From a virus, in the IMG/VR virus record IMGVR_UViG_3300042566_000510, positions 13,492-77,491 of that record: DNA of 64,000 bases; one strand, 5' to 3'. Shown here piece after piece: positions 12,901-43,776 of this stretch. A program made the position numbers and the translations under genes. Every line of letters starts with the position of its first letter. Within the stretch, counting starts at the first letter, position 1. The notes under the pieces are model-generated. The model saw only the letters and a program-made list of their open reading frames with translations. It searched no databases and was not told where the DNA came from.

Positions 12901-15900
12901 AAGCTCAAGATCATCAAGCCCGGCGAGCTTTCCAAGAAGCCAAGCGCCGAGCGCCCCGGCAATCGTCGCCCTCTGACGCAGGCTGATGCCGCACTCATCG
13001 AGAAGGTCGCTGCACTTCTGGGCAAGAACGTCGTGTTCTTTGAGGCTCAAGAGGGCCGCCTCTCTGACGGCTTCGTACGCCCCGGCCAACCCGACACTAT
13101 CTACGTTGCCACCGAGACCACGGTCAATCCGCTGGCAATCTTTGGTCACGAGTTCTTTCACACCCTGCGCGAGACCAATCCCAAAGCCTGGGACGCCGTC
13201 GCTGCCGTGGTGGGCACCAAGGTCACCGCCGCCAAGCGCTTCCGCAAGGACCGCTACGGCAAGAAGGTTGCCGACGCAAAGGGCGACGCCGCACTCAGCA
13301 CTGAGGTTGGTGGCGAGCTCGAGGAGCTGGTGTCTGACCTGGGCGGCAACCTCCTAAAGGACTCCAAGTTCTGGAAAGAAGTCTTTGCCAAGATCGAAGC
13401 TGACAACGGCGCCGAAGCCAAAGGCATCATCGCCAAGCTGTCGGCCGCCATCCAGAGCGCGATCACTCGCATCGTCAAGGCGATCAACCAGCCAGGCTAC
13501 CGCGCTGACAGCTTCGTCAAGGATCTCGATCAAGTACGCGCTGCGTTCGTGGACGCAATGGCTGCGCACCTCAAGAATGGCGACGTCGAAAAGATGGCCG
13601 CCACCGCGAACCAGAAGATCAAGAAGTCCGAAGATCGCGACGGCCTCACTGTCGAGGGCTATCACTTCAGCAAGGCGCCTCGCACCGTCTTGACCACCGC
13701 CATGTTTGGCACCGGCCTCAAGGGCAGCGCTCGCGAAGACATCAAGAACAACCCAGACCAGCGCCTGCGCCAGCGCCTGTCTTTCTACTTCGACAAAGGC
13801 ACCGGCATCAATCCGGAAGCTGGCGTTGGCAGCATTGCCCACAAGGCAACTCTCACCAACATCTACGACGCCGATGCAGATCCGTTGCGCCTGCGTACGG
13901 GCGATGCACGCGCGTTCGAGTCCAAGGTTCTGGATAACGGCTACAGCGGCTACCTCCAGCGCATGCAAGGCACGCAGTCCGGCCAGGTCATCTTGCTGGG
14001 CAAGCAGACCGTCAAGCCCGAGATTCTCGGCGCTGTTGGCAAGATCACCAACGCCGAAGTGGTGCCAGCTCCCAAGCAGCGCGCCGCTGATGTTGGCGAC
14101 CAGATCATGGCCAACAAAGATCTGCCAGCGGGCGCACTGACGCCGACGCAATGGTCAGAAGCGCTGATGCAGAAGATGCCCGAAGTGGCAGCACAGCTGA
14201 TGGACATCGGCGCCTTCGAGGGCAACGACTCCATGTACAAGGATGAGCTTGTCGCCAAGGCGCGCCAGCTCTCCAGCCAGATCAAGAAGTCTGCCGATCG
14301 CGCACGCGACGAGTACGCCGAAGTCGAAGCCAAATACAAAGGCACCGACGAATGGCTGAAGGCGCCCAACGGCGAGAGCACCAACCTCAGCGAGCGCCAG
14401 TGGATCCAAGTCCGCACGCCTTCATTCAAGAAGTGGTTCGGCGACTGGGAGAAGTTTGCCGGCATGCAAGGCGGCGTTTGGAATGACGCCAAGAACGAAG
14501 TCTCCAAGGCTGTCGACAAGAACGGTGAGCCGCTGGTCGTCTACCACGGCACCAACAAAGGCGGCTTCTCTGAGTTCAACACGCCCGGCGGAGAGAAGCG
14601 CGGAGATCTTGGGATTTTTACCACGCCTAACCTGGAGATGGCGCAGACCTACTACAGCCGTCGAGGCGGAGAAATCGATCTCTCCGACAAGGACCAAGGC
14701 GATCTCGAGGATATCGGCTACCAATTCAAGCCAGGCTTTATCGTCAAAGGAAGCGATGTTGGCTTCTTTGATAGCAAAGAACAATTGCTCGAAGAGGTTG
14801 AACTCGATCCCGGCGAAGAGATTGTCGAGGCATGGGATGTCACCGATCCAAACGGCTACAACGTAGACGGGCCGCGTGATCACTCGTACTACTTTGAATC
14901 GCTTGCCGACGCCGTTGGCACAGTAAACCTAAATATGGCGCAAGAGTCGACGAAAGAGTCTGGCTATTACGCCCTGTTCGCCAACATCCGCAATCCATCC
15001 GAGAGCGACTTTGAGGGCGCCAACTGGGAAGGTTCACGCGAAGGTCAGTACAACGTCATCAATCAAGACGGCGAGCAGGTCTACGACAAAGACGGTAAAG
15101 GTGTCTTCAACTCCTATGACGAAGCCCAGGAGGTGCAGTTCGCCAACCCCGGAACTACGGTCGAAGGCGCGGCCGATCACTACGAAACCACCGATGACGT
15201 GGTTTTGAATGCAAAGCGCTACGGCAACGACGGCGCTTACATGCAGAACGTCGTGGACGCAGGCCCAGGTGGCGGCGCGTACATCGACGAGCCATCCGAT
15301 ATCTTCGTTGCGCTCGATCCATCTCAACTCAAGTCTGCCAACTACAACAGCGGCGAGTTCAGCGTTGACAGCAGCGATTTGCGCTTCTCGAAAGACCGCC
15401 TCACGCGCGAAGATCCGTTCGAGATGTCGACGCGCATCCCAACAGCCAAAGGCAAAGTGGTCGAGGACCATGCCGGAGATCTCCTGATCTCCGACTTTGC
15501 CGCCGGTCAGAAGCAGGAGAAGTGGGTCAACTCGGTGGCCAACCTGGTCGCGCAGTACCCCAACTATCGCGAAGCAGACAGCGCCAAGACGCCAGCCAAG
15601 AAGCTCGAGCGCCTTGTCCGCCATATGGTTGAGAACCTCGTCTGGTTGCACAACCAAGTGCCGGCCGAGACTCGCCAACGCAGCAAGCTGTGGTACGACG
15701 GCGCCAACCGAATTGCCGAGCGCATGTCTCGCAAGTACGAGCTGACGCCAGCGCAATCGTCCGGCATCCTCGCCGTGCTAAGCCCGCAAAAAGACTGGTT
15801 CATGAACGTGAGCCTGGGCGAGCGCGTTGCCTCGATCATGGCTGAGCGCCAGAACTTCCAATGGTCCAAGGACATGGATGCCACGGCCAACCGCATCTAT

Positions 15901-17649
15901 GGTGCGGCCAAGTACCAGGAAGACGTTGACGCCATCCGCGGCAAGTCCCTATCCGACCTGGACGGCAAAGCATACCTGCAAGCCATGTGGGTGCGCACGT
16001 ACGACCAAGCTCACAACTCGAGCTCGTTCAACATCGTGTCACCCGAAGGTGATTCGCTGGCGATCGCCAAGGCCAAGACCGGCAACCCGGTCAAGGTGGC
16101 ATGGGGCGGCAACAGCACCATTGCCAAGGCCATCTCGATCTTCAACGACGGCTCTGCAAGCAACATCAGCGAGCAGTTGGGCACCAAGCACAAGGTGCGC
16201 AACTTCTTCAACAACATCCTGGTGCCAAAGAGCAAGAACGGCCACGTCACGATCGACACGCACGCCGTCGCTGCTGCGCTGCTGCGACCTCTGTCCGGCA
16301 ACTCGCTCGAGGTGATGCAAAACTTTGGCGGCACCTCGAACGCCATCAGTGGTCTACAGGGCACCTATGCTCTGTACGAAGAGGCCTACCGCCGCGCGGC
16401 CGAAGAGCTTGGCCTTCTGCCTCGCGAGCTGCAATCAATCACCTGGGAGGCTGTCCGCGGCCTGTATACCCCGGGCTTTAAGTCACAGTCGAAAAATGTT
16501 GACGCTGTTGATAAAATATGGAATCAGTACAAGAAAGGACGACTGAGCTATGACGGAGCAAAAGAATGGGCACTCGAAACTGCGGGAGGAATTGAGCCTC
16601 CTAGCTGGCTCGGACGCGACCCTGGCGCATATGTTGAAGACGAATCGTCCATTGAGCCTGGAGACGTATCTGGAGATGGAGTATCCGGAAGGGATTCCGA
16701 AGACGCTTTCATCCGAGCAGTGGGCGATGATTCCGGAGCCGCTGAAGAGAGCATCCGACAATCAGGAGACCGAGAAGGACGGGATGAAAGCGGAGGCATT
16801 GCGCCGCTTGCAGGTGCGCCAACTGTTCAAGGCGCGTCCGGGCCAGACCCGCGGCTCGTCCAAGTAGCAAACAAGTACGCCAGCGACAACGGCATCACAC
16901 TCCGCCGCCAGGCAGAGTACGTTGAGGTTGACCCCGAGCGCGCAGCTCGGATCGCGGCCGCCTACGAGGCTATGCCGCACGCCCCGCAAGACCGCAAGGT
17001 CAAAGCAGCATTTGCCAACCTGATCCGCCAGACGCGCGCTCAGTACGACGCGCTGGTTGATGCAGGCTACAAGTTCACGTTCTTCGACTCGAAGAGCGAC
17101 CCCTACGGCGGCAACCCATGGAACGCCATGCGTGACCTGCGCGAGAACCAGCGCATGGCCGTGTACGGCACCTATGACGGCTACGGCACCGAAGGTGTGA
17201 CCAAGAGCAAGGTCGACGACAACCCAATGCTGGCCGACACCGGCCTTGAGTGGGAAGACCAGAACGGCAAGCTTCATCCAGTGCTGGCCAACGACCTGTT
17301 CCGTGCCGTGCATGATGCTTTCGGTCACGGCCTTGAGGGCACCGGCTTCCGCGCTCGCGGAGAAGAGAATGCGTGGCAGGCTCATATCCGTATGTTCACC
17401 GGCTCTGCCAAAGCTGCGATCACCACAGAAACGCGTGGCCAAAACAGCTGGCTGAACTACGGCCCGTACGGTGAAAAGAACCGCGTCGCCAAAGTTGAAG
17501 ACACAGTCTTCGCCGAACAGAAGACTGGCCTGATGCCTGAGTGGACTTGGTCTGAAGGGTTGGCTGAAGACATGCCGACCAAAGACGAGCCCACTTACAA
17601 TCAGCGCGTCAACGCCCTCAAAGATTTGATCTCCTGCCTGAAGAAATAA
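9904..17649 (+). CDS. Giant polyvalent internal virion protein: GH108 muramidase, inorganic pyrophosphatase-like, zincin peptidase, two ADP-ribosyltransferase-like, DUF7178/HhH-glycosylase-like and HDxxGH domains
   Basis: EEGGYV..GETNFGI (GH108); HYGEFQGTIGADGDKLDVF..FDEHKVMMGF; GHEFFH; YHFS..GYSGY; FKKWFGDW..PLVVYHGT..QLKS; WYDGA..LAVLSPQ..VTIDTHA..LQSITW; FRAVHDAFGH..GEENAW. Confidence 0.8.
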   Translation: MEFKPSISPEQFDMMQGGGQPTSSASPSQKYAGGFDAAASFTLGEEGGYVKDDAGAGETNFGINKRANPDVDIKSLTESGARDLYKTRYWNPIGGDELAKRNPILATIAFDTAINMGPTTAKNFLRAANGDPAKVLEMRAERYRDLLAADPKKFGKYADGWQSRMDKLYELAGTQQPAAQPTNDFSGEGSTAGGIDWNAKEKGFVDRASEGFKRGFDQSIGLGQAAAALVNRTVTGEKYNEFQDEMLQAAGKRMQPEGSAPTPQFSDVVSGGANFKDWLADSVGYLGYQAVEMAASFGIGGLIGKNIAKGAVKEVAEGMIEKEVARLAATDAAKTLSKDEIGALAVKNVAGEIAGSMATFANNLRQTSGGVYMEALDNEAKTGKPADLTNAWVGSIGSALVDTAADIAGARGILGKAGSGNATFLGRAATQVPRQMGIQGGTEYLQSNIENAAAGTDPFTEKAQIQALNEGAVGALGGVFPGLGEARVQRATNPLQSVIDHAEKPGSVLSRAVVSTGVTDQAAAAAASEALPPAADDLVQRVRDVEAGMRNGPVLDNLRDDGVDTRELLNDMQLARRTDAPRVAREAALERIETAIHFANQDAQPRAPLDSIQSNPAFDFTQQEQVEPQQIPDLSAVSTALRDPNLRNTISDEDRDQLLYLYNIAGNSKGDTVVRTNAARQALEIVGRYQTPVGTPGSTTPALEQAAQAGAAIATPAEQQTVAAEPKELDFLQAVPEPKVGIPAGEGPAFLRKRAAVVKQLVDNGFETVQRDSKDFYLTNTKTGQKFKLDGSADAQLARKAIKDRVDALAATNEKNPSQAKINANNYKKSDVIDLNGMKIKIENERGDIRRGVGPDGTPWETKMAHHYGEFQGTIGADGDKLDVFIGQRPDSNKVYVVDQVNQDGSFDEHKVMMGFTSKEDASSGYLANYEKGWTGLGAITEMSVDEFKTWAKSRAAKKPASSVLENAAAAGQDQFTEEEKAEEKSGKFFYVNDGEKQHKLKIIKPGELSKKPSAERPGNRRPLTQADAALIEKVAALLGKNVVFFEAQEGRLSDGFVRPGQPDTIYVATETTVNPLAIFGHEFFHTLRETNPKAWDAVAAVVGTKVTAAKRFRKDRYGKKVADAKGDAALSTEVGGELEELVSDLGGNLLKDSKFWKEVFAKIEADNGAEAKGIIAKLSAAIQSAITRIVKAINQPGYRADSFVKDLDQVRAAFVDAMAAHLKNGDVEKMAATANQKIKKSEDRDGLTVEGYHFSKAPRTVLTTAMFGTGLKGSAREDIKNNPDQRLRQRLSFYFDKGTGINPEAGVGSIAHKATLTNIYDADADPLRLRTGDARAFESKVLDNGYSGYLQRMQGTQSGQVILLGKQTVKPEILGAVGKITNAEVVPAPKQRAADVGDQIMANKDLPAGALTPTQWSEALMQKMPEVAAQLMDIGAFEGNDSMYKDELVAKARQLSSQIKKSADRARDEYAEVEAKYKGTDEWLKAPNGESTNLSERQWIQVRTPSFKKWFGDWEKFAGMQGGVWNDAKNEVSKAVDKNGEPLVVYHGTNKGGFSEFNTPGGEKRGDLGIFTTPNLEMAQTYYSRRGGEIDLSDKDQGDLEDIGYQFKPGFIVKGSDVGFFDSKEQLLEEVELDPGEEIVEAWDVTDPNGYNVDGPRDHSYYFESLADAVGTVNLNMAQESTKESGYYALFANIRNPSESDFEGANWEGSREGQYNVINQDGEQVYDKDGKGVFNSYDEAQEVQFANPGTTVEGAADHYETTDDVVLNAKRYGNDGAYMQNVVDAGPGGGAYIDEPSDIFVALDPSQLKSANYNSGEFSVDSSDLRFSKDRLTREDPFEMSTRIPTAKGKVVEDHAGDLLISDFAAGQKQEKWVNSVANLVAQYPNYREADSAKTPAKKLERLVRHMVENLVWLHNQVPAETRQRSKLWYDGANRIAERMSRKYELTPAQSSGILAVLSPQKDWFMNVSLGERVASIMAERQNFQWSKDMDATANRIYGAAKYQEDVDAIRGKSLSDLDGKAYLQAMWVRTYDQAHNSSSFNIVSPEGDSLAIAKAKTGNPVKVAWGGNSTIAKAISIFNDGSASNISEQLGTKHKVRNFFNNILVPKSKNGHVTIDTHAVAAALLRPLSGNSLEVMQNFGGTSNAISGLQGTYALYEEAYRRAAEELGLLPRELQSITWEAVRGLYTPGFKSQSKNVDAVDKIWNQYKKGRLSYDGAKEWALETAGGIEPPSWLGRDPGAYVEDESSIEPGDVSGDGVSGRDSEDAFIRAVGDDSGAAEESIRQSGDREGRDESGGIAPLAGAPTVQGASGPDPRLVQVANKYASDNGITLRRQAEYVEVDPERAARIAAAYEAMPHAPQDRKVKAAFANLIRQTRAQYDALVDAGYKFTFFDSKSDPYGGNPWNAMRDLRENQRMAVYGTYDGYGTEGVTKSKVDDNPMLADTGLEWEDQNGKLHPVLANDLFRAVHDAFGHGLEGTGFRARGEENAWQAHIRMFTGSAKAAITTETRGQNSWLNYGPYGEKNRVAKVEDTVFAEQKTGLMPEWTWSEGLAEDMPTKDEPTYNQRVNALKDLISCLKK
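16489..16517 (+). promoter_or_regulatory. Internal sigma70-like promoter inside the giant gene
   Basis: TCGAAA-17 bp-TAAAAT with extended -10 TG, in a local AT-rich patch; AAGGA RBS at 16535-16539. Confidence 0.5.
16550..16867 (+). CDS. Nested +1-frame gene inside the giant protein gene (candidate immunity/partner protein)
   Basis: Own promoter and RBS; protein-like sequence MLKTNRPLSLETYLEMEYPEGIPKTLSSEQWAMIPEPL; main frame becomes D/G/S/R low-complexity over much of this stretch. Confidence 0.6.
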   Translation: MTEQKNGHSKLREELSLLAGSDATLAHMLKTNRPLSLETYLEMEYPEGIPKTLSSEQWAMIPEPLKRASDNQETEKDGMKAEALRRLQVRQLFKARPGQTRGSSK

Positions 17650-17655
17650 AGAACC

Positions 17656-20600
17656 ATGGCCCAATTCTCAAACTGCCTCCAGATCGTCAACAACATGCCT
17701 GAGCGCGACCAGGAGGCTCTGCTGAGTCGACTGGATCAGCTCCAAGCTCAAGGCCTGTCAGCCAAGGAGGCGCAGCTTCAGGCGGCCATTGACGTGCTGG
17801 CGCAGGTTGAGCGCGAGGGTCAAGTTCGCAAAAGCGCAGACCGCACCTGGAGCGGGGACGGGTATCGAGCCCTGAACTACAACCCGCCAAAGAATGCAAC
17901 GGTTGCCGATGTAGTCCGATACGAAAGCGAAGAGCTTGGCAATGCAGACATTGGAGAGATGGCCGATGAGTCCGCCAATCAGCTCGGCATTGACCTTTCT
18001 GCGATCCCAGCGTCCGATGCGATCTGGGTGACGCACACCGTAGAGCAGGCAATGCAGTACGGCGAGCGCTCAGACATTGATAAATACCCCGTCAACGGCT
18101 GGCTGATCCTGGCCGACCTTGGCGACGAGGGCGCGCTACTCCTAAATCCCAAGCATGCTCAAGGCATCCTCAAGTCCGTCGACCGCCCTCAGTTCTACAG
18201 CCAGCTTCAGCGCTCAATTGAGCAAGTGCCCGAGCGCCTGGCAACCATGGCTGCGCCAGCATGGAAGCAGTGGCTCACGGCCAACGCCTCTAAGCTCGGC
18301 ATCAAGGCCGACGAGCTCGAGTGGTCCGGCATCAAGGACTACCTGGACCTGCAGGGCAAGGCCAAGCTCAATAAGGCTGATCTCTCCTCCTACCTCGACG
18401 ACAGTGGCGTCAAGATCTCCGAGGTACAGCTTGACGATGCTGATGCCAAGCGTTCGCGAGCAGACAAGGAGGCTGCAGCAAACAAACTTACGCGAGCCAC
18501 CTTGGAGCTCCGCGAAGCTACGCCAAACATTCGTCAGCTGGATGGCGCCAACCTCACCGGATGGGCCGAAGATGCCTATGCCGGCGATGAATTTGCACAG
18601 CGGAAGATCCAAGCACTTAGCCTGGATGACAACGCCATGGCTGCAGTGCGTGAATATGGCCGCGTCGCAGCCGAATTTAACGAGGTTCATAACACTCGCA
18701 ATTCACCGGCAACCAAGTACGGCCAGTACACCCTGCCAGGTGGTGAGAACTACCGCGAGGTGCTGATCACGCTGCCGGTAACGCCAAAAGATGGCGCCAC
18801 CATTCAGCAGGCGTCATCTGGTTTCTGGCGTGTCACATTCAAAAATGGCGACACGGCAATGTTCAAGACGGAGTCGGAGGCTCGCGCAGCGGCTGGCGGA
18901 AGCGATGCGTACACATCAAGTCACTGGGACCAGAAGAACATCCTTGCCCACATCCGCGTCAACGACCGAGTCGCACAAGAGCCTGGCTTCATTGTGCGCA
19001 ACACCCGCTCCGGCAACCGCAGCGAAGTGTTTGCAACCCGCGAGCAAGCTGAGGACTACCAAGCCAAGATGCCTGCGTCCTTGAAGACGGAAATCGTTGA
19101 GCAGCCTCGCGAAGTAAAAGTTCTCTTCGTGGAAGAAGTTCAATCGGACTGGGGCCAAGAAGGTAAGAAGAAAGGGTTCGCCGGCCAGAATGGCGCGCCT
19201 TTGTCTGAGCAGGAATACAAGCGCGCTGCCGAGCTGCAAAAGCGTGACCGCCTTGGCGGCGAGCCCTTGAGCGCCACTGAGCGCGCAGAGTTTGACGCGC
19301 TGATGGCCCGTCACACGCGAGCTCATGAGGGACTGATGGTTCCCAACGCCCCCTTCGTCACCAAGACCGAAGGCTGGCTCAACCTCGCGCTCAAGCGCAT
19401 CGCCATGATGGCCGTCGAGGGTGGCTACGACAAGGTGGCTTTCGTCAACGGCGAGCAGTCGGCTGACCGCTACAGCCTGGAAAAGCAAGTCGATGAGCTT
19501 TCCTACGAGCCAACAGCCAAGGGCTACTACATCAACGTGATGGCCAGCGGTCGCAACATCAAGAGTGGCGACTTCACGAAGAGCGAGCTCGAGGACATTG
19601 TCGGCAAAGAGATTGTCCAAAAGATGGACGCTCGCGAAGGCAAGGTCGAGGGCACGCCAGGGGCTCCGGACTACGAAGATTTGAAGGATATTCGCACTCT
19701 GAGTGGCGACGGTCTCAAAGTCGGCGGTGAAGGCATGAAGACCTTCTACGACAAGCTCGTGCCACAGGCTCTCAACAAGCTGCTGCCTAAGCTGGGCGGT
19801 GAGAAGCTGGGCGCCGTCGAGATCGACGTGCAAGGAACCGGCCTGCAGACTCGGTACGAGTACCAAGGCCCAGAGCTCAAGCGATCCGAGATCGATGCAA
19901 TTGCAAGGTCAGGCGATTTCTCTGTATCGATTGAGCGTCAGTTGCGCGAAATCGGTAGCTTTGTGGAAGTCGGAGTGCCCATGGCGGAGGCGGTGCAAAA
20001 GTATGGCTCCATCTCTGCGGCTGAAGCGCTCGGCGGCAAGCTGGTGCCAATGAAGAATGCGATGTCCGCGCAACCAGGCTTCGACGTCACAGACAAGATG
20101 CGCGAGACCGTGTCTGCCGGTGTGCCGCTTTTCAGCCGTGATCGCCAGACAGAGACGCCTGAGTTTAAGAAGTGGTTTGGCGACAGTAAGGTGGTGGATG
20201 CTGAGGGTAAGCCGCTGGTGGTTTATCACGGGACTGGCGGCGACTTCGATTCATTCGATGCCGCTCGCTCGGGCCAGAACTACGCTCGACGTGGCGGAGA
20301 AAAAGGCTTCTTCTTCACGAACAGGCCAATTCCCGCTGGCGTGTACGCCGAACAGGCGAGCGGAGCCTTCTTTGGTGACGAAGAGAACCCTCGCTTCGGC
20401 GACGGTACGGCCAACATCATGCCGGTGTACCTGTCGCTGCAGAATCCCTACGTCCGCAAAGCGACCGGCTCTCCTGACAAATGGTTCGATTCAAACCACA
20501 GCGCCTTGCTGGCTGCCGCCGAAAAAGCTGGCGCTGACGGCATCATTGTTAATGGCGGCAAAGGATTTGAGATCCGCAGCGTTTACATCGCATTCAGCCC

Positions 20601-23418
20601 CACCCAAATTAAATCCGCCACAGGCAACAACGGCCAGTTCGACGCGACCAACCCAGACATCCGCAAGTCTGCCGACCGCCCTTGGTTCGACGACCTGAGT
20701 AAGCTTAAGGTCACAACCAACTACCAGCTCGGCGACTTGCTGAAGACCAGCAAGAAGCTGTCTTGGTGGGATCGCACCATCGGCACACAGTACAACCTGG
20801 CGCAGAAGCACCCGCAGTTCAAGCGCGTGTTCGACGCTGTGCAGCGCTTCATCAACGACGTGTCGCTCTACGCCACCCGTGCTGCCGACCTGGCGCCAAC
20901 CTGGCTGCCAAAACTGGATGGCATTTCGGACATCAACCCGTTCAGCAAGAATTTCAAGCGCCCAGTTTCCGCGGAGGACGTCAAGGCTTTGCGTGACCCC
21001 ATCTTTGGCGGCACGCTCAAGTACACCCGCGACGAAAACGGAGAGCTGATCGAGTCGGATGATGTGTCCACTGCAGGCGTGGTGTTCACCAACGAAGAGC
21101 TGCGCACAAACTTCGGCTTGAACGATCGCCAGATCGGCCTGTACCGCGAGTTCCGCAAGTCGGTCAACAAGAGCATTTCAGACTTGGCCGTATCGGATTC
21201 GCTGCGCTACCTCGGTAAAGATGGCGAAGGCGTGCGCCAGCGAGCGCTTGACGCCGCCAATCTGGATGACGCACTAAATGCCATGGTTGCTCACCTTGAT
21301 CAGTTGATCGCTCAGCAGCCGGAGCGCGCAGAGGTACTTGAAGATAGTAAGCGCGTCATCAAAGAGAAGGCGGGCCAGGCCATCGGCGCAATGTCACGCG
21401 GTTACGCACCTTTGTCTCGCTTTGGTGAGTACACGGTCTACGCTACCGGCGAAGGGCTCGAGGAACCCATCTTCTTCATGTTCGAGAATGAGCGCGATGC
21501 AAACGTGCGTGCTCGCGAATTACAACGCGAATTCCCAGACGCCAACATTGAGCAAGGAACGATGAGCCAAGAGAGCTACAAGCTCTTTAGCGGCGTGACG
21601 CCAGAATCGCTTGCCCTGTTTGGCGAGGCTCTTGGGCTCGAGGAGTCCGGCGCCGACACCAAGTCGCAGGCATTCCAGATGATGCTGAAGATGGCCAAGG
21701 GAAACCGGTCCGCCATGAAGCGCATGATTGAGCGTAAGGGTATTGAGGGCTTCAGCGAAGATGCTGGTCGCGTGCTGGCTGGCTTCGTGTACAGCAATGC
21801 GCGTCAGATCTCGACCAACCTGCATGCCGGAGAAATCGCACGCAGTGTCCAAGAAATCGATCAGCGAAATGGCGACGTTAAGGACCAAGCTGTCCGTTTG
21901 ATGGAATACGTGCAGAACCCACGCGAAGAGGCTCAAGCCTTACGCGGCCTGATGTTTACGCAGTTCATCGGTGGCTCTATCGCTTCGGCCATAGTCAACA
22001 TGACTCAGCCGTTCACCATGACCCTGCCTTACCTGAGTCAGTTCGACGGCGCCACCGGTGCCGCCTCTCGCATGGCCGACGCAGTGAAGCTGGCCTCTCG
22101 CGGCATTCGCAATGACGACGACCTCAAGGCTGCACTCAAGCGCGGAGAGGATCTCGGGATTGTTAGTCCGCAGGAAGTGCATCAGCTCATGGCTCAGGCT
22201 CAAGGCAAGGGCAAGCTGCAAACCGGCGACGGCACCAAGATGGGCGACGCTGCGGCCAAGGTGAACAACGGCCTAGCCAAGCTTGGTCTGGCGTGGGGCA
22301 AGGTGTTCTCGGCTGCCGAACAGTTCAACCGTCGCGTGACCTTCATCGCTGCCTACAAGCTGGCTCGCGACCAAGGCATGGCCGATCCAATGGCTTTCGC
22401 TGAGAAGGCCATCGCTGAGACGCAAGGCGTGTACAACAAAGGCAACAAGCCAAACTGGGCTCGCGGCGCAGTGGGCGGCACCTTGTTCACGTTCAAGCAG
22501 TATTCAATCGGCTACCTCGAGTTCTTGCGCCGCATGTGGGGTAACGGACCAGAGGGCAAGAAGGCCGTCGGCCTCGCGCTTGGCGTGTTGTTCCTCATGT
22601 CTGGCTTGGGCGGCATGCCTGGCTCCGACGATCTGGATGACGTCATCGACGGCTTCATGCAGCGCGTGCTCGGCCGTAGCTTTGACAGCAAGCAAGCGAA
22701 GAAAGAGTTCTTCGCCAGCATCCTGGGTCAATCCGGCGCTGAGTTTGTGATGAGCGGACTGTCTGGCTTGCCAGGCATGCCAATCGACTTCTCCGGTCGC
22801 ACGGGTCTAGGCAACATAGCTCCAGGCACTGGCATCTTCACCAAGAAGCGCGACTACGCCCAGGACTACAAAGAGGTGCTTGGCCCTGTCGGCACGCTGG
22901 CAACAAATGCAGGATCTTTCCTGGCAAACTTTGCGGCCGGCGAGTTCGGCAAGGCTGCGGAATCGGTTGCGCCGGTTGCTGCGCAGAACGTCATCAAGGC
23001 AATCGACATGGCGCAGATGGGCTTCTATCGCGATGCTAAGGGCCGCAAGGTCATTGACACAACGCTGAGCGAAGCCATCCTCAAGGGTGCAGGCTTCCAG
23101 CCACGTTCGGTCAGTCAGATCCAGCAAGCCACCGGCGAGCAGCAGGGTCTCATCGCGCAGAACCGTTTGGCATGGCAGGAGATCCGTGATCTCGCTGTTG
23201 CCGGTCGCGTCGAGAAGGATGAGGCCAAGCTTGCAGAGGCGCGCCGTCGCTTTGGCCAGTGGAATCGCAACAACCCTGACAGCCCAATCCGCTGGAATCA
23301 AGAGTCCATCAACAGCGGCGTCAAAGAAGCCAACAAGCCAAAGGCTGAGCGCATCGCTGATGCTGCGCCCAAGCAGATCCGCGGCACAGTCAAGCGAGAA
23401 CTTGAGAAGGCCGACTGA
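17656..23418 (+). CDS. Second polyvalent internal virion protein: ART-like cassettes, EEVQSD domain, C-terminal PLxRFG domain
   Basis: GYRA..IWVT..QYG; YREVLITLP..FVEEVQSDW..PNAPF; FKKWFGDSKVVDAEGKPLVVYHGT..QIKSATGNNG; GYAPLSRFG. Confidence 0.8.
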   Translation: MAQFSNCLQIVNNMPERDQEALLSRLDQLQAQGLSAKEAQLQAAIDVLAQVEREGQVRKSADRTWSGDGYRALNYNPPKNATVADVVRYESEELGNADIGEMADESANQLGIDLSAIPASDAIWVTHTVEQAMQYGERSDIDKYPVNGWLILADLGDEGALLLNPKHAQGILKSVDRPQFYSQLQRSIEQVPERLATMAAPAWKQWLTANASKLGIKADELEWSGIKDYLDLQGKAKLNKADLSSYLDDSGVKISEVQLDDADAKRSRADKEAAANKLTRATLELREATPNIRQLDGANLTGWAEDAYAGDEFAQRKIQALSLDDNAMAAVREYGRVAAEFNEVHNTRNSPATKYGQYTLPGGENYREVLITLPVTPKDGATIQQASSGFWRVTFKNGDTAMFKTESEARAAAGGSDAYTSSHWDQKNILAHIRVNDRVAQEPGFIVRNTRSGNRSEVFATREQAEDYQAKMPASLKTEIVEQPREVKVLFVEEVQSDWGQEGKKKGFAGQNGAPLSEQEYKRAAELQKRDRLGGEPLSATERAEFDALMARHTRAHEGLMVPNAPFVTKTEGWLNLALKRIAMMAVEGGYDKVAFVNGEQSADRYSLEKQVDELSYEPTAKGYYINVMASGRNIKSGDFTKSELEDIVGKEIVQKMDAREGKVEGTPGAPDYEDLKDIRTLSGDGLKVGGEGMKTFYDKLVPQALNKLLPKLGGEKLGAVEIDVQGTGLQTRYEYQGPELKRSEIDAIARSGDFSVSIERQLREIGSFVEVGVPMAEAVQKYGSISAAEALGGKLVPMKNAMSAQPGFDVTDKMRETVSAGVPLFSRDRQTETPEFKKWFGDSKVVDAEGKPLVVYHGTGGDFDSFDAARSGQNYARRGGEKGFFFTNRPIPAGVYAEQASGAFFGDEENPRFGDGTANIMPVYLSLQNPYVRKATGSPDKWFDSNHSALLAAAEKAGADGIIVNGGKGFEIRSVYIAFSPTQIKSATGNNGQFDATNPDIRKSADRPWFDDLSKLKVTTNYQLGDLLKTSKKLSWWDRTIGTQYNLAQKHPQFKRVFDAVQRFINDVSLYATRAADLAPTWLPKLDGISDINPFSKNFKRPVSAEDVKALRDPIFGGTLKYTRDENGELIESDDVSTAGVVFTNEELRTNFGLNDRQIGLYREFRKSVNKSISDLAVSDSLRYLGKDGEGVRQRALDAANLDDALNAMVAHLDQLIAQQPERAEVLEDSKRVIKEKAGQAIGAMSRGYAPLSRFGEYTVYATGEGLEEPIFFMFENERDANVRARELQREFPDANIEQGTMSQESYKLFSGVTPESLALFGEALGLEESGADTKSQAFQMMLKMAKGNRSAMKRMIERKGIEGFSEDAGRVLAGFVYSNARQISTNLHAGEIARSVQEIDQRNGDVKDQAVRLMEYVQNPREEAQALRGLMFTQFIGGSIASAIVNMTQPFTMTLPYLSQFDGATGAASRMADAVKLASRGIRNDDDLKAALKRGEDLGIVSPQEVHQLMAQAQGKGKLQTGDGTKMGDAAAKVNNGLAKLGLAWGKVFSAAEQFNRRVTFIAAYKLARDQGMADPMAFAEKAIAETQGVYNKGNKPNWARGAVGGTLFTFKQYSIGYLEFLRRMWGNGPEGKKAVGLALGVLFLMSGLGGMPGSDDLDDVIDGFMQRVLGRSFDSKQAKKEFFASILGQSGAEFVMSGLSGLPGMPIDFSGRTGLGNIAPGTGIFTKKRDYAQDYKEVLGPVGTLATNAGSFLANFAAGEFGKAAESVAPVAAQNVIKAIDMAQMGFYRDAKGRKVIDTTLSEAILKGAGFQPRSVSQIQQATGEQQGLIAQNRLAWQEIRDLAVAGRVEKDEAKLAEARRRFGQWNRNNPDSPIRWNQESINSGVKEANKPKAERIADAAPKQIRGTVKRELEKAD

Positions 23419-23679: not shown

Positions 23680-23751
23680 GGTGCGGTGGCCGAATGGTAA
23701 GGCACCAGTCTGCAAAACTGCGTCTCGTGGGTTCGATTCCCTCCCGCACCT
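23680..23751 (+). tRNA. tRNA-Cys (GCA), no encoded CCA
   Basis: Acceptor GGTGCGG/CCGCACC; anticodon loop CTGCAAA; T loop TTCGATT; U73 discriminator; one mismatch each in the anticodon and T stems. Confidence 0.85.
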
Positions 23752-24500: not shown

Positions 24501-24509
24501 AGGGTGGCC

Positions 24510-25649
24510 ATGGGCGTCCGTCAGACCCCGAGCGGGAAGTTCGAGCTGCGCATCACGCACCGTCTGTTGCCGAAGGCGGTGTACCTCACCTTCAACAACG
24601 AAGACGCTGCCAACGCGTACGGCGCGCAAGCACGCGAGCTCCTCGACTCTGGTGTTGTGCCGGCCGGACTGGTCGATGAGAAGAAGGTGCCAACGCAAAC
24701 GCTGCACTCAGTGATCCGCGCATGGCAGGCGCACGGTCAACTCTCCACGGCTGATGACGAGATCCTCGACGTGCTGACGGGAGAGATCGGCAAGACCAAG
24801 CTGTCCGAGTTCACGTACGCCTGGTGCGAGCAATGGGTGCGCGATATGAAGCTCAAGGCCAACCTGGCGCCCGGCACCATCCGTAAGCGCATCGGCGCCC
24901 TCGCCCGCTGCGTTGACTGGGAACTCAGGAAGACGCCGGACCTGCTGGTCGGCAACCCCTTGCGCTCACTTCCGCGCGGATCAGCCACCTACAGCGCCAA
25001 GGATGCAGCGGAAGCGAAGAAGCTGGGCAAGAAGGTGCGGCAGGACGCAGTGCGTGATCGGCGCCTGCACAGTGGCGAGCATGAGCGAATCATGAAAGCG
25101 CTGGCCGGCGAAAAGCGAGAGGACCGTCAGCGGCCGCTCGAGCCCGATGAAGACCTGCGCGACCTGTACCTACTGATCTTGCATACAGGTATTCGACTGC
25201 GCGAGGCGTACACCATTAAGCGTGAACAGGCCGGCGAACGCGTGCTGCGCATCAGCAGCTCGAAACAGTGGCACGGGCGGGAAGCCTGGCGCGATGTGCC
25301 CATGGTCAAAGAGATCCGTCAGATGATGGCCCGTCGTGCCGCTAAATCAAAGCCAGGAGCGCTTGTTTTCCCTTGGTGGGACGGAGACCCCCAAGAGCTC
25401 GACAAGGTCACCACGCGGCTCTCTCGTCGCTTTGGCTTGCTGTTCAACTACGCAGGTTGCGTAGACTTGACTGAGCACGACTTGCGTCACGAGGCGACGT
25501 GCCGTTGGTTTGAGATGCGCGACAAGAGGGGTGGCTGGCTTTTCCGCGAAGCTGAGATCGAGAAGATCATGGGCTGGGCGCCGGACAGCTCAATGGCCAA
25601 GCGCTACGCATCATTCCGAGCTGAAGACCTAGCCGAGCGTCTTGACTGA
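24510..25649 (+). CDS. int: Tyrosine recombinase (integrase)
   Basis: HTGIRLRE, HDLRHEA, IMGW..MAKRY catalytic motifs. Confidence 0.93.
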   Translation: MGVRQTPSGKFELRITHRLLPKAVYLTFNNEDAANAYGAQARELLDSGVVPAGLVDEKKVPTQTLHSVIRAWQAHGQLSTADDEILDVLTGEIGKTKLSEFTYAWCEQWVRDMKLKANLAPGTIRKRIGALARCVDWELRKTPDLLVGNPLRSLPRGSATYSAKDAAEAKKLGKKVRQDAVRDRRLHSGEHERIMKALAGEKREDRQRPLEPDEDLRDLYLLILHTGIRLREAYTIKREQAGERVLRISSSKQWHGREAWRDVPMVKEIRQMMARRAAKSKPGALVFPWWDGDPQELDKVTTRLSRRFGLLFNYAGCVDLTEHDLRHEATCRWFEMRDKRGGWLFREAEIEKIMGWAPDSSMAKRYASFRAEDLAERLD

Positions 25650-33073: not shown

Positions 33074-33102
33074 TATTATCGCAACATTTTGTTGGCTGTC
33101 GA
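33074..33102 (-). promoter_or_regulatory. Leftward promoter with operator in the spacer
   Basis: Minus strand TCGACA-gCCAACAAAATGTTGc-GATAAT. Confidence 0.65.
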
Positions 33103-39846: not shown

Positions 39847-40257
39847 TTACATCAATCCGCTCCACGGGTTGGCCAGCTTTGATGTTGGTCGCTTCCCTGT
39901 TTTGCTGAACCCAAACTTCTCCATCATCTTCGGGGCGGTGTAGTAGTACGTCATGTGAACGCTCTGCCCGAACTTGATCGCAATGTCATTGCAGGTCACG
40001 CCCTTCGCCCTGAGCTCGCACATTTGCTTGGCAATCTTCTGGCGCCCGGCAACAAGCGTCTTCCACTCGCCCGTCTGGCGCTGCTCCCATTTGGCAATGT
40101 CGCTCTTGGCGTAGCTGAATGCTCCTGGCGGGAGCTCTCGCGTGGTGAATCGGTGACCGCAATCGCCGCACGCGCGGCGCCTCGAGATGATGCCCGTGTC
40201 AGCTGTTCGGGTTGATAGCACGCTACTGTCAGGCGCGTGGCACTTCGGGCACTTCAC
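39847..40257 (-). CDS. NrdR-like zinc-ribbon protein with C-terminal HTH
   Basis: MKCPKC..VLSTR..RRRACGDCGHRFTTRE; no ATP-cone; C-terminal GVTCNDIAIKFG. Confidence 0.75.
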   Translation of the reverse strand: MKCPKCHAPDSSVLSTRTADTGIISRRRACGDCGHRFTTRELPPGAFSYAKSDIAKWEQRQTGEWKTLVAGRQKIAKQMCELRAKGVTCNDIAIKFGQSVHMTYYYTAPKMMEKFGFSKTGKRPTSKLANPWSGLM

Positions 40258-40400
40258 TGCCCATCAAACTGCTGCTTGCAGTTCGCCTCGCACTCACACA
40301 CGCAGCCGTTGCGGCCACTCATCACACATAGCGAGAGCACGAAAACTCCCGCGGTAGCCCCTACGATTAGGGCAAATACAAGCCATAGCCAATGAACCAT
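40254..40400 (-). CDS. Small membrane protein (48 aa, not in ORF track)
   Basis: AGGAGG RBS; MVHWLWLVFALIVGATAGVFVLSLC. Confidence 0.6.
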   Translation of the reverse strand: MVHWLWLVFALIVGATAGVFVLSLCVMSGRNGCVCECEANCKQQFDGQ

Positions 40401-40424
40401 TTGAACCTCCTAAGTTGTGCGCTT

Positions 40425-40463
40425 ATTATGCCAACAGTTTGTTGACTGCACAACGTATTGTTG
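40425..40463 (-). promoter_or_regulatory. Leftward promoter with two operators
   Basis: TTGTGC-17-CATAAT; CAACAGTTTGTTG at 40432 and CAACGTATTGTTG at 40451. Confidence 0.7.
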
Positions 40464-40475
40464 CTGTCGTGCGAC

Positions 40476-40506
40476 AAAAAAAAGAGCCCGCCGAAGCGAG
40501 CTCTTT
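40476..40506 (-). terminator. Rho-independent terminator ending the ncRNA transcript
   Basis: Minus strand AAAGAGCTCGC-ttcg-GCGGGCTCTTTTTTTT. Confidence 0.85.
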
Positions 40507-40685
40507 GCGCGTTCCCTGCATTCGTCCCTGGATGAAGACCGGAGGCCCAAGTTTCGATGGCATGCGGGGCTGGTCCCTAGTGCGCTATCTAGGGTCAAGG
40601 TCGCCTCTTGTGTCGTCTGTTGGTGGCTCCGTTAATTTTTGAGCGCGGGCTCCGACGGAACAGCGGAGGTAGAACAATATTCACA

Positions 40686-40775
40686 CCAACACGACTGAGG
40701 ACTGCCGCGAATTCCCTCCGCAAGGCGGATTAACTGCCTCGCCAGACAGTGTTTCGCAATCCTCATGCGTGTTGG
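40686..40775 (-). ncRNA. Multibranched structured RNA module
   Basis: CCAACACG..TGAGGA / TCCTCA..CGTGTTGG closing stem with internal hairpins. Confidence 0.5.
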
Positions 40776-40938
40776 CCCGGGAGCTACCCGGGTACTACGC
40801 CACGTCTCTCCGTGATGTCTCTGCCTTTTCCGACCAAGCGCAGCAGTTTGGCTTTCGTTTCGTTCGAGTTTCGACTATCGGCCTCTACTCCAGCCTCTCG
40901 TAGCGGCAGGTGACGTGATGACACTTGTACTTCGCGCC

Positions 40939-41052
40939 ATCAAGTCTTTGCACGCTGTCTGCAGTTACTGCTAGACACCATCCCTCGCATGAAAAATTAC
41001 CCATGCCAATTGCGTTTGCAACCGCAGTTCAGGCGACATGCAAAGACTTGAT
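40939..41052 (-). ncRNA. Cloverleaf RNA module
   Basis: Perfect 14-bp closing stem ATCAAGTCTTTGCA/TGCAAAGACTTGAT enclosing three hairpins. Confidence 0.55.
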
Positions 41053-41222
41053 AGTCCCCGTCTTCCCGGGGTGCCAGAGACCTGTTGGCCGGTGCTCCTC
41101 GCGCTCTAGTGATATGGCCCAATTGCAAAGCCCGCCCCAGGACAGGTCGCCTGGCGAGTGACACCCTTCATGGACATTTAGAGGCCGTCTTGAAGGATGA
41201 AGTCATCCAGCCTTTTTTTTGT

Positions 41223-41311
41223 TGATGGTGGCCTGTACTGATCTCAGGCTTTTCGTTAGGCGGCAATGCGGCCTGTTCGCTTGGGCGCATCAGCCTGCGC
41301 ATTCACCATCA
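41223..41311 (-). ncRNA. C4-antisense-RNA-like cloverleaf
   Basis: Minus strand GATGGTGAATGCGCAGGCTGATGCGC..GCCTGAGATCAGTACAGGCCACCATC; resembles the C4 family from memory only. Confidence 0.6.
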
Positions 41312-41424
41312 CATCAGCGGGCCGGGCTTGATTCCGGCTATCGACTTGTCAAAATCCCAAAGTGCAGAGTCGTACGTACTCGGGGATCTCTCTGTGCGTG
41401 CCCTTCCACGCCGCCGCTGATGTG
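41310..41424 (-). ncRNA. tRNA-like RNA with long variable middle arm
   Basis: 11-bp closing stem CACATCAGCGG/CCGCTGATGTG; D-like arm CGTGGAAGGGCACG; T-like arm GCCGG-AATCAAGC-CCGGC. Confidence 0.55.
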
Positions 41425-41550
41425 AGGGTCCAGTTCTGTTCTCTGGCGTCATCTGCTTAGCACATTCACCCGCAGCTTAGGTGTCTAGGAGTCCCGGCTT
41501 TGCGCCGGGCCGCATGTGCAATACGGCTAATGGCTTGCGAAAGCGCTCCC

Positions 41551-41589
41551 AGTATAGCAACTATTTGTTGGTCTGCAACAGTTTTGTTG
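41551..41589 (-). promoter_or_regulatory. Leftward promoter with two operators driving the ncRNA cluster
   Basis: TTGCAG-16-TATACT; CAACTATTTGTTG at 41558; CAACAGTTTTGTTG at 41576. Confidence 0.65.
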
Positions 41590-41827
41590 CAAGTTTATGT
41601 GCGGATGCGATTCCAAGCGTCGGGCAATCGCACATCGAACCTGACCCTACGTACGCGAACTCACGGCCTCCGTAGTGAACCGCCGCGATGATGCCGACAA
41701 TCTTCCCCTCGACAGCCTCTTTCAGCAGCGCCTGCAGATGCTGCACCGTCTTCGGGTCACGCTGCTTTTCTGCGAGCCGAATTACGGTTGCCGGACCTTG
41801 CTTTGGTGTGCGTTGTTTCTTTACCAC
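41561..41827 (-). CDS. Hypothetical protein downstream of the repressor
   Basis: LQALLKEAVEGKIVGIIAA; GGAG RBS. Confidence 0.6.
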   Translation of the reverse strand: MVKKQRTPKQGPATVIRLAEKQRDPKTVQHLQALLKEAVEGKIVGIIAAVHYGGREFAYVGSGSMCDCPTLGIASAHKLATKLLQTNK

Positions 41828-42239
41828 GGTCTCCTGCGCTTTCTTTGTCGTTGAACGGGCGTGTTGTGCTTTCCTTCACGCGCTCCGGCATTGCAACGGC
41901 ATCACCAGTCAGAGCCCTGAGATGCATGTCAACAAGGTCGCCTATCAAAGCTTTGGCTGGCGGCGGGAGGCGTGAGATCTGTAGCAGTAGAGCAACGTCA
42001 TTGGGATCAATCATCCCTGAGATTTGCGACCGCTTTTCAGCGGCCCTTGAGCCCTCGGTCCAATCAATGTTGAAGCTCAGCGCGGTCTCTAGCGCGTTGG
42101 TCTTGGACTTGCCTGGGAAGCTGCGTCCGTTCTCCCAGTGCCTGATCGACTGGGCGGAAGTGCCTAGACGTTTGGCTAGTTCGTTGACCGTAATACCTAA
42201 CTGCTCTCGGCGCAGCTTGATCTGATCCTTGACCTTCAT
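41757..42239 (-). CDS. XRE-family HTH repressor (CI-like, no S24 peptidase domain)
   Basis: IKLRREQLGITVNELAKRLGTSAQSIRHWENGRSFP; at the divergence point with operators upstream. Confidence 0.8.
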   Translation of the reverse strand: MKVKDQIKLRREQLGITVNELAKRLGTSAQSIRHWENGRSFPGKSKTNALETALSFNIDWTEGSRAAEKRSQISGMIDPNDVALLLQISRLPPPAKALIGDLVDMHLRALTGDAVAMPERVKESTTRPFNDKESAGDRGKETTHTKARSGNRNSARRKAA

Positions 42240-42762: not shown

Positions 42763-42945
42763 CCGCACCGTCCCCTTGGCGGGGGAGGGAAAAAGAGCAA
42801 GCCCAAGCCGGAATCCTGCAGGTTGCTCGCCTGTCCGCCAACGCCAGCGCAATGCTGGTGAGGATTCCGACTTGGGCTTTTGTACTTCCGGACACCGGAA
42901 GGGAAAGAAAGATGTGAAAAAAGAGATCGTTCAGGTGGGGTCAGG

Positions 42946-43776
42946 ATGAACTACTACCCACACCACATTGGAGACTTCGATCGCGCCACACGTCACCTGA
43001 CGCGAGTTGAGCGCAGCGTGTATCGAGACTTGATCGATGTGTACTACGACACCGAGCGCCCGCTGACGCTCGATCAGAAGGCGTTGTGTCGTTTGATCAT
43101 CGCCCGTACTAACGAGGAGGCAACGGCCGTTGCGCAGGTGTTGAGCGAGTTCTTTGACGAGACGCCAACGGGCTGGTACCACGCCCGCTGCGAAGAGGAG
43201 ATCGCCCACTTCCGCGCCAACAAAGGGCAAAAGGCTGAGGCCGGAAGGAAATCTGCGGCGGCTCGAGCACTCCGAAAGCAACAGGCGATCAACGGCTGTT
43301 CAACGGGCGTTGAGCAAACGTCTAACGGAGCTCCAACTAACCAAGAACCAGGAACCAATAACCAAGAACCAGGAACCACTACCCCGACCCCGTCGGATGT
43401 GTGCGGCCCATCAACGGATGATCATCTGGCTGATGGGTTCGATGATTTTTGGGAAGCATGGCCAAGCCATCACCGTAAGGCGGACCGGGCTAAGTGCCTG
43501 AAGTACTGGCGCGCAGAGAATCTTCACCAGTGCGCGGCTCCCGTTGTTGCCAGCGTGGAGGCTTGGAAGCAGTCCGCGCAATGGACAAAAGATGGTGGCG
43601 AGTACATCCCGGCTCCGCTGCCATGGCTGCGCAAGCGAGTGTTCGAGGCGCCAGCGCCAGCCGCTGCCTCGGCTGTCCTGCCGTTCAACCGCCAGGTCGC
43701 TCAGGAGCAGCGAAACCAAGACGCCGTCGACCAGTGGCTCGCTTCGCAACAGGGGGTCGTCTATGAAGCCGAGTGA
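42946..43776 (+). CDS. Replication initiator, YdaU/DUF1376 family
   Basis: MNYYPHHIGDF..HLTRVERSVYRDLIDVYY; FDDFWEAWP..YIPAPLPWL. Confidence 0.85.
   Translation: MNYYPHHIGDFDRATRHLTRVERSVYRDLIDVYYDTERPLTLDQKALCRLIIARTNEEATAVAQVLSEFFDETPTGWYHARCEEEIAHFRANKGQKAEAGRKSAAARALRKQQAINGCSTGVEQTSNGAPTNQEPGTNNQEPGTTTPTPSDVCGPSTDDHLADGFDDFWEAWPSHHRKADRAKCLKYWRAENLHQCAAPVVASVEAWKQSAQWTKDGGEYIPAPLPWLRKRVFEAPAPAAASAVLPFNRQVAQEQRNQDAVDQWLASQQGVVYEAE
43290..43378. repeat. Probable origin iterons within the initiator gene
   Basis: 11-bp periodic CAACGG-like units at 43290-43337 and two copies of TAACCAAGAACCAGGAACCA (43338, 43359). Confidence 0.65.

Follow-up and report, generated by a model that had tools for sequence, protein, structure and literature searches.

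Among the tRNA genes of bacteriophage T4 lie those of the species 1 and species 2 RNAs, small stable noncoding RNAs with tRNA-like ends, which are co-transcribed with the tRNAs and excised by tRNA-processing enzymes. Ribozymes of the 'theta' group, which resemble that of hepatitis delta virus (HDV), adjoin phage tRNAs, and the DicF RNA is made from a repressor-controlled early-left operon (dicBF of prophage Qin). In an mEp460-like prophage, sRNA-17 was detected by Northern blot in the lysogen (PMC7719688), and the put RNA of HK022, in which two stem-loops form a V with a triplex and which is present in two copies per genome (putL and putR), binds the beta' zinc-binding domain (PMC9378689). Here we compare with these systems a locus at positions 40476-41589 of a 64-kb stretch of virus DNA (hereafter the window), which covers positions 13,492 to 77,491 of the 77.5-kb IMG/VR record IMGVR_UViG_3300042566_000510, a record with direct terminal repeats. 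The locus lies in the early-left region of a temperate phage and forms a noncoding transcription unit complete in itself, in which RNA modules that fold independently are strung together around a central pseudoknot. An earlier reading of the letters alone (the sequence-only reading) had described the same region as an operator-controlled transcript built from tandem cloverleaf RNAs.

The pseudoknot, which was overlooked in the sequence-only reading, lies at 41213-41163 (minus strand, 51 nt), in the gap between the second and third of the four modules described below. Since its helices S1 and S2 cross, the element is an H-type pseudoknot. With the unit read, here and below, on the minus (sense) strand, its parts are:

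41213-41208 with 41187-41182, minus strand: helix S1, 6 bp, 5'-NGNCUG/CGGN'CN'
41207-41199, minus strand: loop 1, GAUGACUUC
41198-41192 with 41169-41163, minus strand: helix S2, 7 bp, crossing S1
41191-41188, minus strand: loop 2, AAGA
41181-41170, minus strand: loop 3, CUAAAUGUCCAU

The first clue to this structure was that, among the copies, the base before CUGG varies in Watson-Crick fashion with the base after GACGG. In a gapless alignment of 50 distinct sequences, S1 is 99% paired and three of its six pairs vary on both sides; its covariation of 0.426 compares with 0.10 in shuffles (0 of 500 reach the observed value) and with at most 0.128 for slid partners. Similarly, S2 shows a covariation of 0.441 as compared to 0.143 in shuffles (again 0 of 500) in an alignment of 57 sequences. 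The changes in the pseudoknot, as well as those in the GRRAGA hairpin described below, include G-U intermediates, and S1 contains one invariant U-G pair. Covariation across related phages, which had been named as a check on the modules, is found in strength in S1 and S2, an element outside the claimed modules. The family consensus of the loops reads GA(U/A)GA(C/G)UU, (A/G)AGA and ..AAAUGUC.., an invariance that is in part imposed by the search patterns. Among the matches listed in a looser scan, only two loop types occur: type 1 has GAUGACUU with AAGA (53 distinct cores among the matches listed), and type 2, typical of enterobacterial prophages and of mEp390, has GAAGAGUU with mostly GAGA (35 distinct cores among the matches listed), the two types differing by linked changes in all three loops. 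As judged from these comparisons, the pseudoknot is a well-supported new RNA family.

Several other interpretations of the core were tried and rejected. It is not a small open reading frame (ORF; MTSSFKT...), as +2-nt indels shift the frame, yet the downstream nucleotides are conserved. Neither is it a promoter of the sigma-70, sigma-54 or extracytoplasmic function type, the hexamers being poor by eye, the 'spacer' interrupted by indels, and the element present in one copy per genome. Finally, the closing stem GGCUGG/CCGGCC that RNAalifold places around the core block shows no covariation and competes with the covarying S1.

How widespread is this motif? A blastn search against phages matched only the 53-nt core 41215-41163, with 89-93% identity, in the N4-like Xanthomonas and Stenotrophomonas phages RiverRider, PB119, Paxi, Piffle and Pokken, where the core lies, on the tRNA strand, in an unannotated gap of 630-920 nt inside or after the tRNA array. 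By exact words, the core was retrieved from 8 IMG/VR contigs and 11 metagenome contigs; when one strand of the search pattern was freed, 59 loci were retrieved, and when parts of the loops were freed as well, at least 120, so that the family totals at least 164 phage loci with at least 88 distinct cores. In the window, the covariance model of the family (R1) gives this copy 77 bits (E ~2e-21). The next-best match has only 10 bits; the motif is, therefore, single-copy there, as it is in RiverRider, Pokken, mEp390 and one E. coli chromosome. With R1, no second copy was found on the PR side (that of the rightward early promoter) in the window, nor was any match found in HK022 or P1. There is no match in Rfam 15 to the pseudoknot in the window or in those loci of the relatives that were checked, and literature searches on prophage RNAs that resemble tRNAs, on large RNAs of phages and on pseudoknots similar to put yielded no description of the motif. 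A host-gene origin was considered and rejected in favor of a phage-borne motif, as the core was found in only one of 185,579 species genomes and in none of 400 sampled genomes of the class of that hit; the hit, in an Ottowia chromosome, adjoins similar RNA words and is probably prophage-borne.

The orientation of the motif always agrees with the local transcription. In 11 of 20 sampled loci, the upstream gene on the same strand encodes a helix-turn-helix (HTH) repressor, with or without a peptidase S24 domain, and in mEp390 and an E. coli prophage the motif sits in a gene-free stretch of ~750 nt that separates the annotated prophage repressor from the early-left genes. The ORF calls around other loci are too noisy to define conserved downstream partner genes. 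In PB119 (locus L003, 2426-2515) and mEp390 (L082, 2699-2941, mEp390_036), annotated coding sequences for 'hypothetical proteins' overlie the pseudoknot and are probably mis-annotated RNA. The gaps between tRNA-Gln and tRNA-Arg in the N4-like phages (L001, L003-L006) share further conserved blocks, among them a hairpin CAGAUGUAGUCC..GGACUGCAUCUG and, just 5' of the pseudoknot, T-arm-like GGUUCGAUCC words, which suggests that these gaps hold further uncatalogued RNA modules. Another module of the enterobacterial leader (L058, ~3222-3320, minus strand) combines the hairpin GCCGG-UGGAAGC-CCGGC with a long CACAAC..GUUGUG stem 3' of it; among 5426 complete E. coli genomes, 1376 have a match, and none of the listed records annotates it.

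In the window, the unit around the pseudoknot is delimited by the following signals:

41551-41578, minus strand: sigma-70-like promoter, with the -35 element TTGCAG at 41578-41573, a 16-nt spacer and the -10 element TATACT at 41556-41551
41589-41576 and 41570-41558: two operator-like palindromes CAAC-N5/6-GTTG, over the -35 element and the spacer
40473-40506, minus strand: intrinsic terminator, with an 11-bp GC-rich stem (40506-40481), a UUCG loop and a U8 run

Transcription would start near 41544. The same pair of palindromes covers the next leftward promoter (40463-40451 and 40444-40432), and the window contains 12 palindromes of the CAAC-N5/6-GTTG type as compared to 2.6 expected, a number that none of 100 shuffles reached; owing to this excess and to the reuse on the next promoter, they are plausible operators of an early regulator. 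Further CAAC-N5-GTTG palindromes are seen at 33082, 38229, 42725, 58241 and elsewhere, one of them beside a promoter-like site at 38250-38223, so that the set looks like a regulon of early promoters with a common operator type. The promoter block is 85% identical in the related loci L019 and L017 despite diverged flanks. As for coding capacity, the longest minus-strand ORF of the unit has 55 amino acids (aa), none of ten small ORFs on its two strands has a PHROG match at E<=0.1, and alignments of the unit with its relatives show indels of 1-2 nt. The leftward promoter with two operators, the strong terminator with its stem and U run, and the want of a convincing ORF between them had all been pointed out in the sequence-only reading and are borne out here.

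Within these borders, that reading had placed at least four closed multibranch modules. All four are present in the minimum-free-energy fold of the unit, with stabilities (z, against 200 dinucleotide shuffles) of -2.57 to -5.62 as compared to z of ~0 in the inter-module spacers. In the order of transcription, the modules and the conserved elements between them are:

41306-41428, minus strand: module 1, z -3.55; 15-bp closing stem, D-like hairpin GCGUG..CACGC, T-like hairpin GCCGG..CCGGC, hypervariable interior
41222-41313, minus strand: module 2, z -2.57; degenerate tRNA-like element with closing stem UGAUGGUG/CACCAUCA, 4-bp D-like arm, T-like hairpin
41087-41162, minus strand: conserved block 3' of the pseudoknot; two or three hairpins, ~90% identical in at least 9 relatives
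41056-41071, minus strand: GRRAGA-hexaloop hairpin, copy 1, CCCCG-GGAAGA-CGGGG
40936-41056, minus strand: module 3, z -5.62; 18-bp closing stem, three inner hairpins
40800-40815, minus strand: GRRAGA-hexaloop hairpin, copy 2, UCACG-GAGAGA-CGUGG
40685-40776, minus strand: module 4, z -5.03; long interrupted closing stem, variable interior
40623-40683, minus strand: conserved block, 97% identical in L017
40514-40569, minus strand: 3' domain; stem CGCAU../..AUGCAG around the invariant words CAUCGAAACUYGGGC and GGGACGA

The tRNA-like D and T arms that had been claimed for module 1 (41310-41424) are borne out as D-like and T-like hairpins: in an alignment of five phages, the 15-bp closing stem, the D-like and the T-like hairpins are kept, the T-like hairpin with compensatory changes, and the interior they enclose ranges from ~55 to 130 nt without similarity. 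Compensatory changes are also seen at a few pairs of the block 41087-41162 and, as judged by eye in a three-sequence alignment, in the stem of the 3' domain, with compensated pairs in three phages. The 5' strand of module 2 overlaps the 3' strand of module 1; specifically, the word UGAUGG at 41306-41313 is used by the closing stems of both, and CCAUCA and UGAUGG words are repeated at the module borders. Judging by such shared strands, the folding of adjacent modules may be mutually exclusive. The hairpin motif that had been seen twice is confirmed at 41071-41056 and 40815-40800 as a stem of 4-5 bp with a GRRAGA hexaloop. Around the pseudoknot at 66 loci, this hairpin has 45 sense copies versus 2 antisense ones; in 38 of the 66 it lies 74-190 nt downstream of the pseudoknot, and its 4-5-bp stems covary.

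The comparison with close relatives indicates how the modules evolve. In the loci L016-L019, the layout is the same: the HTH gene is followed by a promoter, an ORF-free stretch of 0.95-2 kb and the early genes. The core block and the arms of modules 1, 2 and 4 are common to these loci, in varying order and number: in L019, the core block precedes module 1 and there are two copies of module 4 with the same arms, and in L017 and L018 module 3 is represented by arm fragments only. The length of the unit among the relatives varies from ~0.65 to 2 kb. The slot of module 2 is filled in L018 by a true tRNA-Gln, which ends 12 nt before the pseudoknot, and in L026 by an RNA with a canonical T-loop and D-arm in which a GAAA-capped arm replaces the anticodon arm. 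As the Rfam tRNA model gives this homologous RNA 41.5 bits (gathering score 29), module 2 is tRNA-derived or tRNA-like, but not a tRNA. Turnover is seen even among freshwater metagenome contigs that are otherwise 95-99% identical to the stretch: in runs X2 and X4, from two studies, the interior of module 2 (41222-41284) is swapped for 72 other letters between conserved arms; in run X3, a canonical tRNA D-arm abuts 41304; and module 4 of run X2 has intact arms around an interior rich in indels. A locus of conserved scaffold arms and fast-changing interiors that exchanges parts with tRNA arrays is, on these alignments, well supported. By position, the flanking modules belong with phage tRNA clusters, their slots being filled in relatives by tRNAs or tRNA-like genes.

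These data bear on three alternatives. First, the region could have no function as RNA, consisting of decayed remnants of a tRNA array or of inverted-repeat cassettes that serve as DNA (similar to miniature inverted-repeat transposable elements or used as recombination arms). It does take the place of tRNA arrays in relatives, and its invariant closing-stem arms flank swapped interiors; nevertheless, the compensatory changes with G-U intermediates and the strong strand bias of the pseudoknot and the GRRAGA hairpin, the invariant U-G pair of S1, the constant agreement of orientation with local transcription, and the promoter and terminator that frame the unit exactly all contradict this explanation, so that we deem it scarcely credible. 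Second, the whole could work as one large RNA in the manner of GOLLD or ROOL, which would accord with the length of ~1.07 kb, the dense fold and the adjoining tRNAs in relatives. However, neither model matches, the pseudoknot is also found alone, and the order, number and content of the modules vary in close relatives over the ~0.65 to 2 kb just mentioned, which a fixed architecture would not tolerate; this possibility appears very unlikely.

Third, the pseudoknot could be a small self-cleaving ribozyme, or the site of a dedicated nuclease, that separates the upstream tRNA or tRNA-like RNA. Its spacing is suggestive, with 12 nt to the tRNA-Gln in L018 and ~10 nt to the tRNA-like 3' ends in L026 and in the window, an A-rich linker lying between; the compact knot with near-invariant loops and covarying stems is scattered over unrelated phage contexts, as small ribozymes are. 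Against this, no Rfam ribozyme matches at E<=10, helices P3 and P4 of an HDV-like fold could not be accommodated in this order of strands, and most loci lack a nearby tRNA, which makes this interpretation rather improbable.

Known families and antisense targets were searched as well. A cmscan of 40200-41900 against Rfam at E<=10 yielded nine weak matches, mostly driven by the terminator; the unit has no match at this threshold to C4, tRNA, DicF, GOLLD, ROOL or ribozymes, ARAGORN finds no tRNA within it, and the DicF model (RF00039) matches neither the window nor the relatives. By model matches and, for put, by fold and copy number, the unit is not a C4, tRNA, DicF, GOLLD, ROOL or put RNA. In particular, the module that had been called C4-like (41223-41311) finds no C4 match at E<=10 in the cmscan that had been proposed to check it. 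The longest complement to the unit elsewhere in the window, which covers all but 13.5 kb of the record, is 13 nt, as compared to 12-17 nt for shuffles, and pairing with the proposed target leader at 42763-42945 is no better than that of shuffles; antisense guide arms thus find no support in the window. Thus, of the array of scaffolded small RNAs that the sequence-only reading had envisaged, the promoter-to-terminator unit, the separately folding and reordered modules and the conserved arms with variable interiors hold, whereas the membership in the C4/CI group, the guide targets and a role in immunity find no support; the proposed roles in immunity, silencing or decoying are pure inference.

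What, then, could the unit do? We propose, with about an even chance of being right, that it is a polycistronic noncoding RNA that is processed into stable small RNAs acting on host components or defenses. A long transcript would be produced when the repressor is absent or the operators are free, and additional read-through from the repressor operon would be possible, because no terminator intervenes. Host RNase P, RNase E and RNase III would cleave at the acceptor-like and the long closing stems, releasing tRNA-like scaffolds whose interiors vary, the RNA of the pseudoknot and a 3' RNA that ends at the terminator. Early in infection, these products would bind or decoy conserved components or defenses of the host; base-pairing to phage messages is not the proposed mode. 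Host factors or defenses are favored over phage messages because of the turnover of the interiors, the link to tRNAs and the lack of antisense targets in the window. As for the pseudoknot itself, its single copy and near-invariant loops, in distant hosts and in temperate as well as lytic phages, would fit either an intrinsic activity, namely, cleavage, or the binding of a universally conserved partner. Going one step further, we tentatively consider it possible, although well short of probable, that the pseudoknot is a new functional RNA class, which would be a ribozyme that cleaves itself or an aptamer for a universally conserved host protein or defense nuclease; unrelated phages (lambdoid temperate, N4-like lytic and others) would use it, along with fast-evolving tRNA-like scaffolds, as an RNA-only counter-defense cassette system.

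Several observations weigh against the processed polycistronic RNA. Homologues of modules 3 and 4 are few; the long closing stems differ very little among relatives, such that their pairing is backed by stability and not by covariation, and they could also be used as DNA recombination arms. No RNA run is listed among the sequencing runs that contain the stretch. Four contexts (L011, L013, L020, L024) have the pseudoknot by itself, ~100 nt 5' of a protein gene, and of 97 loci scanned strictly, 12 have a terminator within 1.5 kb downstream; elsewhere, the region of the pseudoknot mostly looks like a part of an mRNA leader, not a stand-alone RNA gene.

Because the motif elsewhere lies usually within an mRNA leader, as the result on terminators indicates, a role in cis has to be reckoned with. 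The pseudoknot and its neighbors would then modify the transcribing polymerase or block Rho, enabling early-left transcription to pass terminators and long untranslated RNA, as a functional analogue of put in phages that lack N. Put-like antitermination is the main rival owing to the position after PL, the leftward early promoter, although we consider it unlikely. The element follows a PL-type promoter with operators and lies downstream of the repressor in many temperate phages, the annotated records show no N-like gene at this place, a strong terminator lies downstream in the window, and in L011 and L013 the pseudoknot is found alone in the 5' leaders of protein genes; besides, loops that are near-invariant across distant hosts would fit contact with a universally conserved host machine, as in the case of put. 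However, there is one copy per genome and none on the PR side, whereas HK022 has both putL and putR; R1 finds nothing in HK022, and the fold is unlike the two stem-loops with a triplex. Moreover, the genes past the terminator of the window have their own operator-covered promoter, a downstream terminator is found at only a small minority of the loci scanned, and the motif occurs also in the tRNA arrays of N4-like phages, regions that are transcribed by phage-encoded polymerases. On balance, we retain the processed noncoding RNA as the preferred explanation.

The phage itself is, as judged from its gene content (integrase, HTH repressor, RecT and replication initiator), temperate. The blast hits had first led us to assume an N4-like identity, which was ruled out by the integrase, repressor and RecT. 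The genes in question are:

24504-25649: integrase
36994-36035: RecT
42239-41757, minus strand: HTH cI-like gene
42880-43776: DUF1376 replication protein

DNA of this phage and of relatives of the 40476-41589 stretch is found in lake and freshwater metagenomes. The noncoding unit lies directly 3' of the cI-like gene and a small ORF, all on the minus strand. This small ORF (41561-41827, minus strand; at most 88 aa from a GTG) has no Pfam or PHROG match, its C-terminal part is kept in L026 (..KLSQKLL*), and its stop codon falls inside operator 2, so that the promoter and operators overlap the end of the gene. Directly beyond the terminator, at 40254-40470 (minus strand), there is a second operator-covered promoter; a strong ribosome-binding site and a hydrophobic ORF of 48 aa come next, followed by genes for an NrdR-like zinc-ribbon protein (40257-39847) and a GNAT acetyltransferase (39843-39409). 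Elsewhere in the window, two giant ORFs of 2581 and 1920 aa lie back to back at 9904-23418 (plus strand), and a tRNA-Cys (23680-23751) adjoins the integrase.

Annotators usually leave phage tRNA clusters and the early leaders of prophages empty or assign spurious small 'hypothetical proteins' to them; this locus shows that such regions carry a widespread RNA under strong selection, the loops of which are nearly invariant in enterobacterial, xanthomonad and freshwater phages. The exchange of the interiors of tRNA-like scaffolds between near-identical phages is the pattern expected of an arms race. For RNA biology, the pseudoknot offers a small, defined and testable motif of 51 nt with two helices and two loop types; to phage biology, the locus offers a candidate early function exerted by RNA, for the deletion of which there are cultured phages, among them Pokken, RiverRider and mEp390.

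Compared with the described systems, the unit shares features with each and coincides with none. GOLLD and ROOL RNAs are, similarly, associated with phages, adjoin tRNAs and are densely structured over hundreds of nucleotides, but neither model matches here, and the unit is modular and shuffled rather than fixed. The put RNA of HK022 is likewise a structured RNA just after PL, in a lambdoid phage that lacks N, with strongly conserved nucleotides, and it acts on a conserved host machine; in contrast, the element in the window is an H-type pseudoknot in one copy that occurs also in the tRNA arrays of lytic N4-like phages and is without a match in HK022. DicF and sRNA-17 resemble the unit in being noncoding RNAs encoded in prophage DNA, but it has no match to the DicF model. 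The C4 RNAs of P1 and P7 and the CI RNA of P4 are cut from a longer transcript, have tRNA-like features and owe their specificity to variable loops, whereas the unit has no C4 match and no complementary target in the window, and P1 has no pseudoknot. The species 1 and 2 RNAs of T4 are, by description, akin to it as noncoding RNAs interleaved with tRNA genes; unlike them, the unit resides in a temperate phage, starts from an operator-covered promoter, contains no canonical tRNA, and has hypervariable interiors and, at its center, a pseudoknot of a family that is not known to be linked to T4. By analogy, the unit would work most like the stable RNAs of phage tRNA clusters.

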